A DNA stretch of 10,116 nt, from the NCBI RefSeq assembly GCF_003334305.1, contig NZ_QOWS01000043.1; one strand, given 5' to 3'. A program made the position numbers and the translations under genes. Source of the DNA: Escherichia coli (GTDB taxonomy: Bacteria; Pseudomonadota; Gammaproteobacteria; Enterobacterales; Enterobacteriaceae). Every line of letters starts with the position of its first letter. Positions within the stretch are counted from its first letter, which is position 1. The notes beneath the pieces were generated by a model. That model saw only the letters and a list, made by a program, of their open reading frames with translations. It was not told where the DNA came from and made no database searches. Positions 3,098 to 5,334 of the stretch are shown here, one piece after another.

Positions 3098-3304
3098 AAG
3101 CCCTCCTTGAGTCACTATTATGTGCATAAGATATCGCTGCTGTAGCCCGCTAATTCGTGAATTTTAGTGGCTGATTCCTGTTTATTTGTGCAAGTGAAGT
3201 TGAGTTGTTCTGGCGGTGGAATGATGCTCGCAAAAATGCAGCGGACAAAGGATGAACTACGAGGAAGGGAACAACATTCATACTGAAATTGAATTTTTTT
3301 CACT

Positions 3305-3380
3305 CACTATTTTCTTTTTAAAAAACAACAATTTCTATTGAAATTATTAAACGCATCATAAAAATCGGCCAAAAAATATC
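3305..3380 (+). promoter_or_regulatory. AT-rich upstream activating region of the ilv operon promoter (UP-element / IHF-binding region expected here)
   Basis: About 80% A+T stretch with several A5-6 tracts (3320-3325, 3360-3364, 3371-3376) immediately upstream of the candidate core promoter. Published work on ilvGMEDA describes an upstream AT-rich activating region with an IHF site and a non-productive upstream promoter. Exact site boundaries cannot be fixed from sequence alone. Confidence 0.4.
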
Positions 3381-3421
3381 TTGTGCTATTCGCAAAATCT
3401 ATGGTAACTCTTTAGGCATTC
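3381..3421 (+). promoter_or_regulatory. Candidate core promoter and transcription start region for ilvLXGMEDA
   Basis: Candidate -35 TTGTGC (3381-3386) and candidate -10 hexamers in 3400-3410 (tatggt / taactc). A start near 3420 would give a leader of about 180 nt ending at the attenuator T-run (3596-3603), consistent with the recalled leader length. The hexamer assignment is uncertain. Confidence 0.35.
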
Positions 3422-3449
3422 CTTCGAACAAGATGCAAGAAAAGACAAA

Positions 3450-3548
3450 ATGACAGCCCTTCTACGAGTGATTAGCCTGGTCGTGATTAGCGTGGTGGTG
3501 ATTATTATCCCACCGTGCGGGGCTGCACTTGGACGAGGAAAGGCTTAG
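3450..3548 (+). CDS. ilvL: ilv operon leader peptide (32 aa): MTALLRVISLVVISVVVIIIPPCGAALGRGKA
   Basis: ATG at 3450 through TAG at 3546-3548. 15 of 32 codons encode Leu (4), Val (6) or Ile (5), the hallmark of the branched-chain amino acid attenuation leader. An intrinsic terminator lies immediately downstream. Confidence 0.9.
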   Translation: MTALLRVISLVVISVVVIIIPPCGAALGRGKA

Positions 3549-3569
3549 AGATCAAGCCTTAACGAACTA

Positions 3570-3603
3570 AGACCCCCGCACCGAAAGGTCCGGGGGTTTT
3601 TTT
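3570..3603 (+). terminator. ilv attenuator (Rho-independent terminator of the leader transcript)
   Basis: GC-rich stem acccccg (3571-3577) / cgggggt (3590-3596) followed by 8 consecutive T (3596-3603), 22 nt after the ilvL stop codon. Confidence 0.85.
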
Positions 3604-3634
3604 TGACCTTAAAAACATAACCGAGGAGCAGACA

Positions 3635-3685
3635 ATGAATAACAGCACAAAATTCTGTTTCTCAAGATTCAGGACGGGGAACTAA
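3635..3685 (+). CDS. ilvX: Small ORF ilvX (16 aa: [16 protein letters not shown]) between the attenuator and ilvG
   Basis: ATG at 3635-3637 preceded by GAGGAG (3624-3629), stop TAA at 3683-3685, two nt before the ilvG ATG. It matches the position and sequence of the described E. coli small protein IlvX as I recall it. Translation cannot be judged from sequence alone. Confidence 0.55.
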
Positions 3686-3687
3686 CT

Positions 3688-5334
3688 ATGAATGGCGCAC
3701 AGTGGGTGGTACATGCGTTGCGGGCACAGGGTGTGAACACCGTTTTCGGTTATCCGGGTGGCGCAATTATGCCGGTTTACGATGCATTGTATGACGGCGG
3801 CGTGGAGCACTTGCTGTGCCGACATGAGCAGGGTGCGGCAATGGCGGCTATCGGTTATGCCCGTGCTACCGGCAAAACTGGCGTATGTATCGCCACGTCT
3901 GGTCCGGGCGCAACCAACCTGATAACCGGGCTTGCGGACGCACTGTTAGATTCTATCCCTGTTGTTGCCATCACCGGTCAAGTGTCCGCACCGTTTATCG
4001 GCACGGACGCATTTCAGGAAGTGGATGTCCTGGGATTGTCGTTAGCCTGTACCAAGCACAGCTTTCTGGTGCAGTCGCTGGAAGAGTTGCCGCGCATTAT
4101 GGCTGAAGCATTCGACGTTGCCAGCTCAGGTCGTCCTGGTCCGGTTCTGGTCGATATCCCAAAAGATATCCAGCTAGCCAGCGGTGACCTGGAACCGTGG
4201 TTCACCACCGTTGAAAACGAAGTGACTTTCCCACATGCCGAAGTTGAGCAAGCGCGCCAGATGCTGGCAAAAGCGCAAAAACCGATGCTGTACGTTGGTG
4301 GTGGCGTGGGTATGGCGCAGGCAGTTCCTGCTTTACGAGAATTTCTCGCTACCACAAAAATGCCTGCCACCTGCACGCTGAAAGGGCTGGGCGCAGTTGA
4401 AGCAGATTATCCGTACTATCTGGGCATGCTGGGAATGCATGGCACCAAAGCGGCGAACTTCGCGGTGCAGGAGTGCGACTTGCTGATCGCCGTGGGTGCA
4501 CGTTTTGATGACCGGGTGACCGGCAAACTGAACACCTTCGCACCACACGCCAGTGTTATCCATATGGATATCGACCCGGCAGAAATGAACAAGCTGCGTC
4601 AGGCACATGTGGCATTACAAGGTGATTTAAATGCTCTGTTACCAGCATTACAGCAGCCGTTAAATATCAATGACTGGCAGCTACACTGCGCGCAGCTGCG
4701 TGATGAACATGCCTGGCGTTACGACCATCCCGGTGACGCTATCTACGCGCCATTGTTGTTAAAACAACTGTCGGATCGTAAACCTGCGGATTGCGTCGTG
4801 ACCACAGATGTGGGGCAGCACCAGATGTGGGCCGCGCAGCACATCGCACACACTCGCCCGGAAAATTTCATTACCTCCAGCGGCTTAGGCACCATGGGTT
4901 TCGGTTTACCAGCGGCGGTTGGCGCACAAGTCGCACGACCGAACGATACTGTCGTCTGTATCTCCGGTGACGGCTCTTTCATGATGAATGTGCAAGAGCT
5001 GGGCACCGTAAAACGCAAGCAGTTACCGTTGAAAATCGTCTTACTCGATAACCAACGGTTAGGGATGGTTCGACAATGGCAGCAACTGTTTTTTCAGGAA
5101 CGATACAGCGAAACCACCCTTACTGATAACCCCGATTTCCTCATGTTAGCCAGCGCCTTCGGCATCCCTGGCCAACACATCACCCGTAAAGACCAGGTTG
5201 AAGCGGCACTCGACACCATGCTGAACAGTGATGGGCCATACCTGCTTCATGTCTCAATCGACGAACTTGAGAACGTCTGGCCGCTGGTGCCGCCTGGCGC
5301 CAGTAATTCAGAAATGTTGGAGAAATTATCATGA
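3688..5334 (+). CDS. ilvG: Acetolactate synthase II (AHAS II) large catalytic subunit, intact 548 aa
   Basis: Uninterrupted 548-aa ORF starting [25 protein letters not shown] with a thiamine-diphosphate binding motif ([14 protein letters not shown]...LDN). GGGGA Shine-Dalgarno-like sequence 8 nt upstream. Followed by ilvM with a 4-nt overlap. Confidence 0.95.

Follow-up and report, generated by a model that had tools for sequence, protein, structure and literature searches.

The ilvL leader of an Escherichia coli ilvLXGMEDA operon as a multivalent, ribosome-mediated transcription attenuator

The region immediately upstream of ilvX and ilvG in the stretch of Escherichia coli DNA analyzed here (10,116 nucleotides of contig NZ_QOWS01000043.1, hereafter the window) is almost certainly the ilvL leader of the ilvLXGMEDA operon, acting as a ribosome-mediated transcription attenuator. 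Within it we observe a short peptide rich in leucine, valine and isoleucine, three mutually exclusive RNA structures, a dependence of these structures on ribosome position in a footprint model, and an architecture and linkage to ilvG that are conserved across the Enterobacterales. The element is not new; it has been known since 1980 (Lawther & Hatfield 1980, as cited in PMC7815308; Nargang, Subrahmanyam & Umbarger 1980, as cited in PMC8384417). The value of the result is therefore that of a positive control, in which a preliminary description made from the letters of the DNA proved accurate to the base save in two trivial details. Possible minor uses lie in the identity of the Rfam family RF02744, the invariance of codons 15–24 of ilvL, and the prediction that a published proline-to-alanine mutant breaks one of the leader's hairpins.

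Identity and genomic setting

Positions 3250–3700 are 100% identical over 451 nt to many E. coli chromosomes, including that of the K-12 derivative DH5alpha, and these identical records annotate the ORF as "ilvL: ilv operon leader peptide", with ilvX and ilvG after it. This identity, together with the position directly upstream of ilvX and ilvG, places the leader in the E. coli ilvL-ilvXGMEDA system and bears out the operon assignment of the preliminary description. Across 10,041 bases, the window shares 99.92% identity with an E. coli chromosomal stretch whose annotation lists tRNA-Asp, tRNA-Trp, hdfR, maoP, yifB, ilvL, ilvX, ilvG, ilvM, ilvE, ilvD and ilvA. All 5426 complete E. coli genomes carry the leader; its 155-nt core matches annotated records at 100% identity and is at least 99% identical in 5343 of these genomes. 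In the same collection, one complete genome has two copies of the leader region, one copy lies on a plasmid, and in one genome the leader match is truncated at query base 34.

The attenuator is separated from ilvG by ilvX, a 16-codon ORF on the + strand at 3635–3685 that matches the annotated gene; it forms part of the context rather than of the attenuator proper, and it ends 2 nt before the ilvG ATG. The first structural gene, ilvG (3688–5334, + strand), is an uninterrupted ORF of 548 amino acids that also matches the annotated gene, and it is followed by ilvM, ilvE, ilvD and ilvA; ilvG and ilvM overlap as ATGA at 5331–5334. Compared with the E. coli K-12 ilvL/ilvGMEDA (ilvGEDA) attenuator, the leader shows no difference, having the same 32-amino-acid peptide with 15 branched-chain amino acids (BCAAs) in the same place upstream of ilvX-ilvG. 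The ilvG gene of K-12, however, carries a frameshift (PMC8384417), and the uninterrupted gene seen here therefore indicates that the window does not come from a K-12 wild-type ilvG background.

The sequences farther upstream offer some additional context. A 5′-truncated tRNA at 1–73 (tRNA-Asp by the annotation of the matching genome) and a tRNA-Trp with anticodon CCA at 85–160 make up the distal end of an rRNA operon. Upstream of the leader, the tract at 3280–3380 is extremely rich in A+T, has long runs of A and T, and is presumably the upstream promoter or UP-element region; the sole sigma-70-like match returned by a promoter scan, TTGAAA-16-AAAAAT at 3338–3365, falls inside this tract.

The leader peptide

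The leader ORF occupies 3450–3548 on the + strand, begins with ATG, and consists of 32 codons followed by TAG; its translation is MTALLRVISLVVISVVVIIIPPCGAALGRGKA. With 4 Leu (codons 4, 5, 10 and 27), 6 Val (codons 7, 11, 12, 15, 16 and 17) and 5 Ile (codons 8, 13, 18, 19 and 20), 15 of its 32 residues are branched-chain, exactly the count given in the preliminary description, whose run VVISVVVIII is likewise found unchanged at residues 11–20. Such enrichment is unlikely by chance (binomial P of at least 15 in 32 = 0.0036, against a background of 23.8% for Leu, Ile and Val together), and no other of the 71 short ATG ORFs of the window has as high a branched-chain fraction. The ORF is thus of the kind found in leader-peptide attenuators, namely a short reading frame rich in codons for the end products. 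Fourteen of the 15 branched-chain codons fall in a regulatory block from Leu4 to Ile20 (3459–3509, + strand), where folding with the ribosome masked predicts that a stall leaves the antiterminator arm free, at least as far as about codon 18–20, with the same outcome in 79 of 79 homologous leaders.

A six-codon upstream ORF, MQEKTK (3433–3453), shares an ATGA with the beginning of ilvL. One additional base in Citrobacter, Enterobacter and Lelliottia puts its ATG in frame with ilvL (MQENIKM-TALL...), and because the frame is not conserved, this small ORF is probably without function.

Mutually exclusive RNA structures

When 3420–3606 is folded with 3420 as the assumed 5′ end of the transcript, the minimum free energy (MFE) structure (−70 kcal/mol, z = −4.26) contains a protector hairpin over the regulatory codons, a middle hairpin and a terminator. 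The terminator (3570–3604, + strand) is an intrinsic one supported by both folding and the comparative alignment, with a hairpin at 3570–3599, a GAAA loop and a U tract encoded by 8 T at 3597–3604. Six G-C pairs (C3573–G3578 with C3591–G3596) are followed contiguously by a seventh pair, A3572-U3597, beyond which G3571·U3598 and A3570-U3599 are possible; on the loop side, a C3579·C3590 mismatch separates the stem from inner pairs (A3580–C3582 with G3587–U3589) that close the loop. The preliminary description had spoken of a strong attenuator with a "7-bp GC stem" followed by 8 T and had placed the feature at 3450–3603. The hairpin, its seven contiguous pairs, the 8 T and the start all hold, while only six of the pairs are G-C, the seventh being A-U, and the T run reaches one base further, to 3604. 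The predicted energy of the hairpin (−20.3 to −21.6 kcal/mol by RNAfold) lies well below that of dinucleotide shuffles (z = −4.9), and the element sits 84 nt before the ilvG ATG, supplying the G+C-rich hairpin and U tract that an attenuated operon should have after its leader ORF and ahead of its first structural gene. A consensus promoter and terminator scan of the window did not report this + strand attenuator, because the scan demands an unbroken stem and a loop of at most 8 and the internal C·C mismatch violates the former; we considered this miss as evidence against the terminator and rejected it in view of the RNAfold hairpin of −20 to −22 kcal/mol.

The protector, or anti-antiterminator, is a hairpin at 3490–3518 (+ strand) that is seen in both the fold and the alignment, in which GCGUGGUGG (3490–3498) pairs with CCACCGUGC (3510–3518), with a further GAU/AUC pairing at 3500–3502 and 3507–3509. 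Its predicted energy is −14.1 kcal/mol (z = −3.75). The 5′ strand consists of codons Ser14–Ile18 and the hairpin spans codons 14–23, so that it overlies regulatory codons. In the ribosome-free MFE fold, GCCCU at 3456–3460 (Ala3–Leu4, + strand) pairs over a long range with GGGGC at 3519–3523, extending the sequestration of the antiterminator arm.

That arm, GUGCGGGG, runs from the third base of Pro22 to the first base of Ala25 (3515–3522, + strand) and forms 8 perfect pairs with CCCCGCAC at 3574–3581 (+ strand), which makes up most of the terminator 5′ arm and is the element for which the two structures compete; both arms are supported by folding and alignment. The inner part of the antiterminator (3528–3571, + strand, from folding) joins CUUGG at 3528–3532 to CUAAG at 3567–3571 and encloses the middle hairpin, 3540–3546 with 3554–3560. 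Together these elements have a predicted energy of −27.4 kcal/mol (z = −3.98), and of 5000 dinucleotide-preserving shuffles of the upstream leader, 0.84% contain a stretch of at least 8 bases perfectly complementary to the terminator arm. Folding thus yields the antiterminator exclusive of the terminator that had been proposed as a check on the preliminary description, and the two are pairable in this way in 79 of 79 homologues. That description had expected the antiterminator to overlap the regulatory codons and had regarded the lack of such a structure as fatal to the attenuation reading; an antiterminator does fold, and the overlap with the codons belongs instead to the protector at 3490–3518. 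The antiterminator itself begins in Pro22/Cys23, just 3′ of the Ile run, a layout shared with trp. In RNA that is free from 3508 onward, UCCCACCGUGCGGGG (3508–3522) is able to pair with both terminator arms (3573–3596): CCCACC pairs with GGU..GGGG of the 3′ arm and GUGCGGGG with the 5′ arm, in an extended antiterminator of −34 kcal/mol.

Ribosome position and the predicted switch

It is informative to examine these structures in light of where a translating ribosome would sit. At equilibrium, the full leader favors the terminator (P about 0.99) at every position of a 30-nt ribosome mask, and the terminator conformer is 6–9 kcal/mol more stable than the antiterminator conformer even when the protector (all RNA 5′ of 3508–3514) is removed. 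Because the terminator is always favored at equilibrium, the switch must be kinetic rather than thermodynamic; the computations bring out mutually exclusive structures rather than the switch itself, for which kinetics would be required. The assertion in the preliminary description that the arrangement is directly readable from sequence was in this respect overstated, since thermodynamics alone always gives the terminator and the case for its operation rests on published experiments.

Equilibrium folding of shortened transcripts serves as a model, and as no more than that, of how ribosome position could matter. For those ending at 3582–3590, the probability of the antiterminator is 0.07–0.58 with no ribosome. 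The masking model allowed RNA 5′ of the ribosome to pair with RNA 3′ of it, and the absence of the antiterminator at codons 13–17 in that model was an artefact of pairing across the ribosome; a downstream-only model was substituted. In the latter, for transcripts of the same lengths, the antiterminator probability is at least 0.95 with the A site at codons 1–18, 0.75 at codon 19, and about 0 from codon 20 or 21 on, and varying the leading edge of the ribosome from +9 to +16 nt shifts this boundary between codons 18 and 21. A stall would thus be predicted to favor read-through at about 12–14 of the 15 branched-chain codons. Not all 15 could be regulatory on this model: Ile19 and Ile20 are borderline, a stall at Leu27, which lies within the antiterminator, would favor termination, and in the footprint model Leu27 and probably Ile20 would be unable to promote read-through.

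For the order of folding in time, the response to aminoacyl-tRNAs and the transcription start, we infer or take from the literature the following course. Transcription would start a few tens of bases upstream of 3450, and the nascent RNA would first fold the protector at 3490–3518, extended by the pairing of 3456–3460 with 3519–3523, leaving GUGCGGGG (3515–3522) sequestered. Given an ample supply of charged Leu, Val and Ile tRNAs, the ribosome would pass the 14 branched-chain codons at 3459–3509 and proceed over 3515–3522 toward the stop codon at 3546, and the antiterminator arm would be occluded or re-sequestered. With the arm unavailable, the terminator at 3570–3599 would form and the polymerase would release a leader RNA of about 185 nt at 3597–3604. 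A shortage of even one of these charged tRNAs would make the ribosome stall within codons 4 to about 18–20; the protector would be melted or prevented from forming, and the exposed arm at 3515–3522 would pair with CCCCGCAC (3574–3581) once this is transcribed, before the terminator 3′ arm (3587–3596) exists. The polymerase would then read through into ilvX-ilvGMEDA. The response of read-through to the supply of charged tRNA has its basis in the literature (PMC6123439, PMC1183508, PMC8384417). PMC6123439 describes ilvGMEDA as preceded by a 32-amino-acid peptide with 15 BCAAs and controlled by attenuation, citing Lawther et al. 1987 and Nargang et al. 1980, which agrees with the leader found here, and the operon is listed among those controlled by attenuation (PMC1183508). 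RNA-seq density from ilvL to ilvG drops 45-fold in control cells and 9-fold when ribosomes pause in ilvL (PMC8384417). The classic multivalent arrangement for Leu, Val and Ile that the preliminary description proposed is thus supported by the protector, antiterminator and terminator folds, by identity, and by published descriptions of ilvL.

Conservation across the Enterobacterales

To place the leader in a phylogenetic context, one genome per species was scanned with the pattern GTN GTN GTN ATH ATH ATH CCN CC, which gave at least 120 matches and limits the homologue set to leaders containing VVVIIIPP. Among the 120 matches listed, 86 are ilvL-type short ORFs from about 30 genera of Enterobacterales, including Escherichia, Yersinia, Serratia, Pectobacterium, Dickeya, Photorhabdus, Xenorhabdus, Morganella, Edwardsiella and Budvicia; about 35 others (transporters of Pelagibacteraceae, archaeal sequences and others) are unrelated coding matches to VVVIIIPP and were discarded. 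An IlvG-like ORF starts 170–228 nt after codon 15 in all 82 loci with enough flanking sequence. The alignment comprises 80 sequences, with 79 distinct leaders, and the attenuator architecture is conserved among the latter: when each leader is folded separately, the same stall-window profile is obtained in 79 of 79, and the terminator hairpins range from −13 to −25 kcal/mol in the same 79.

The individual structures differ in how they are conserved. In the terminator, 96% of cells in the alignment are paired and 4 pairs have changed on both sides in a compensatory manner, values of pairing and covariation that 0 of 500 shuffles reach. Both-sided changes are also seen in 5 of the 7 pairs of the middle hairpin (3540–3546 with 3554–3560). 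The protector is nearly invariant, with 99.9% of cells paired. The long-range GCCCU:GGGGC pairing (90% of cells paired) shows one-sided changes only and is absent in 12–16 distant leaders, and the CUUGG:CUAAG helix is paired in 68% of cells. In the 8-bp antiterminator core, all cells are paired across the 79 leaders; 7 pairs are invariant and one shows a change from G-C to G-U that also keeps the terminator pairing. Covariation was sought in this core across the 79 leaders and none was found, because the core is invariant. The sequence comparison thus suggests support for the core through conservation and the invariance of synonymous sites rather than through covariation.

This invariance extends to the coding sequence. 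Codons 14–29 of ilvL are extremely conserved, and in the 79 leaders the third positions of codons 15–24 (3492–3521) do not vary except at codon 20 in 2 sequences. The scan pattern had imposed no synonymous choice at the third positions of codons 15–22 and, at codon 23, had required only C or T there. Codons 3–13, in contrast, vary synonymously, with a third-position entropy of 0.3–1.3 bits. The lack of synonymous variation in codons 15–24 argues for a constraint at the level of RNA on the segment common to the protector and the antiterminator, and it could also reflect overlapping constraints from the protector and the terminator.

Alternative explanations

One may ask whether a small gene for a hydrophobic, membrane-type peptide could simply lie beside an ordinary terminator with no regulatory coupling. 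The Leu/Val/Ile-rich composition is typical of small membrane peptides, and the terminator always wins in equilibrium folding, as such a reading would have it. It would leave to coincidence, however, the perfect 8-bp antiterminator over the terminator arm (P about 0.008 by shuffling), the protector hairpin over the codon run, the invariant synonymous sites of codons 15–24, which point to an RNA-level rather than a peptide-level constraint, the fixed distance to ilvG in 82 of 82 loci, and the published experiments (PMC8384417, PMC6123439). We give it practically no credence and regard it as already effectively refuted. One may also consider that the RNA of about 185 nt released at the terminator might serve as a trans-acting small regulatory RNA besides its role in cis, or that IlvL itself might be a functional peptide. 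The transcript on which RF02744 is based was detected in soft-rot Enterobacteriaceae, and the family bears the name of a 5′ UTR element rather than of an ilv leader; this and the extreme conservation of codons 14–29 would fit a further function, but that conservation is fully explained by three overlapping RNA structures together with coding. A second role of this kind has in our view only a slim chance of being real, and it would be compatible with the attenuator rather than exclusive of it.

A different question is whether read-through is dominated by something other than the branched-chain amino acids, be it pausing at Pro-Pro, Rho in connection with ilvX translation, or proteins that bind the leader DNA. 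In m1G37-deficient cells, strong pauses are reported at the CCA-CCG of ilvL (Pro21-Pro22, 3510–3515), read-through has been ascribed to these A-site pauses, and induction is reportedly lost when the codons are changed to GCA-GCG (PMC8384417); ilvX is among the translationally repressed genes with Rho-associated 3′ ends (PMC7815308); and PMC6123439 cites interactions of Lrp with DNA in the ilvGMEDA leader region. These reported layers are, however, additional and seen under special conditions, and the crowding of 14 branched-chain codons directly before the antiterminator arm, a feature shared throughout the order, is what a sensor of branched-chain amino acids predicts. With a ribosome at Pro21-Pro22, moreover, the footprint model has the antiterminator arm covered and predicts termination unless the leading edge lies +9 nt from the A site, in which case partial antiterminator pairing persists at Pro21. 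The GCA-GCG mutant replaces C3510 and C3513, the partners of G3498 and G3495 in the protector, and its predicted protector probability falls from 0.97 to 0.03; since the change is predicted to destroy the protector, we infer that the published Ala-Ala mutant may be structurally confounded. Dominant control by any of these factors therefore appears very improbable, more so than the second role considered above. That the range of codons giving read-through differs from the classical picture, with the leader integrating a signal from Pro-Pro and tRNA modification, is a somewhat better prospect, although still an unlikely one. If the effect of the proline pause is real and not an artefact of the mutant, its route would be a partial antiterminator of 3–4 bp or a non-classical mechanism.

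Relationship to RNA families and other attenuators

The leader is already represented in Rfam, although under another name. RF02744 (Rev39_5p_UTR) matches 3379–3668 over the whole of its model (1–300) with 157.1 bits (E = 3e-48), well above its gathering score of 88, and its consensus structure includes the protector hairpin, the middle hairpin and the terminator. The family is named for a 5′ UTR of soft rot Enterobacteriaceae rather than for an ilv leader, and its model describes only the terminated conformation, leaving out the antiterminator; it is evidently the ilvL leader and attenuator, with ilvX in the matched region. A search of Rfam found no family named for the ilv leader. The match to RF00512 (Leu_leader) scores 16.7 bits (E = 0.7), below the gathering score of 50, and the leader does not belong to that family; this match and one to Pseudomon-1 were set aside as sub-threshold chance matches on the terminator. 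The ilvL and leu leaders work in a similar way but show no sequence homology by this measure.

With the trp, his, leu, thr, pheA and ilvBN leaders of enteric bacteria, ilvL shares a short reading frame enriched in cognate codons, a protector (1:2), an antiterminator (2:3), a terminator (3:4) and a U tract, and in all of them the outcome depends on where the translating ribosome stands (PMC1183508). Unlike those leaders, ilvL is multivalent, with the codons of three amino acids interspersed rather than gathered in one run. Its antiterminator also departs from theirs in being a long-range helix built around an extra hairpin at 3540–3560.
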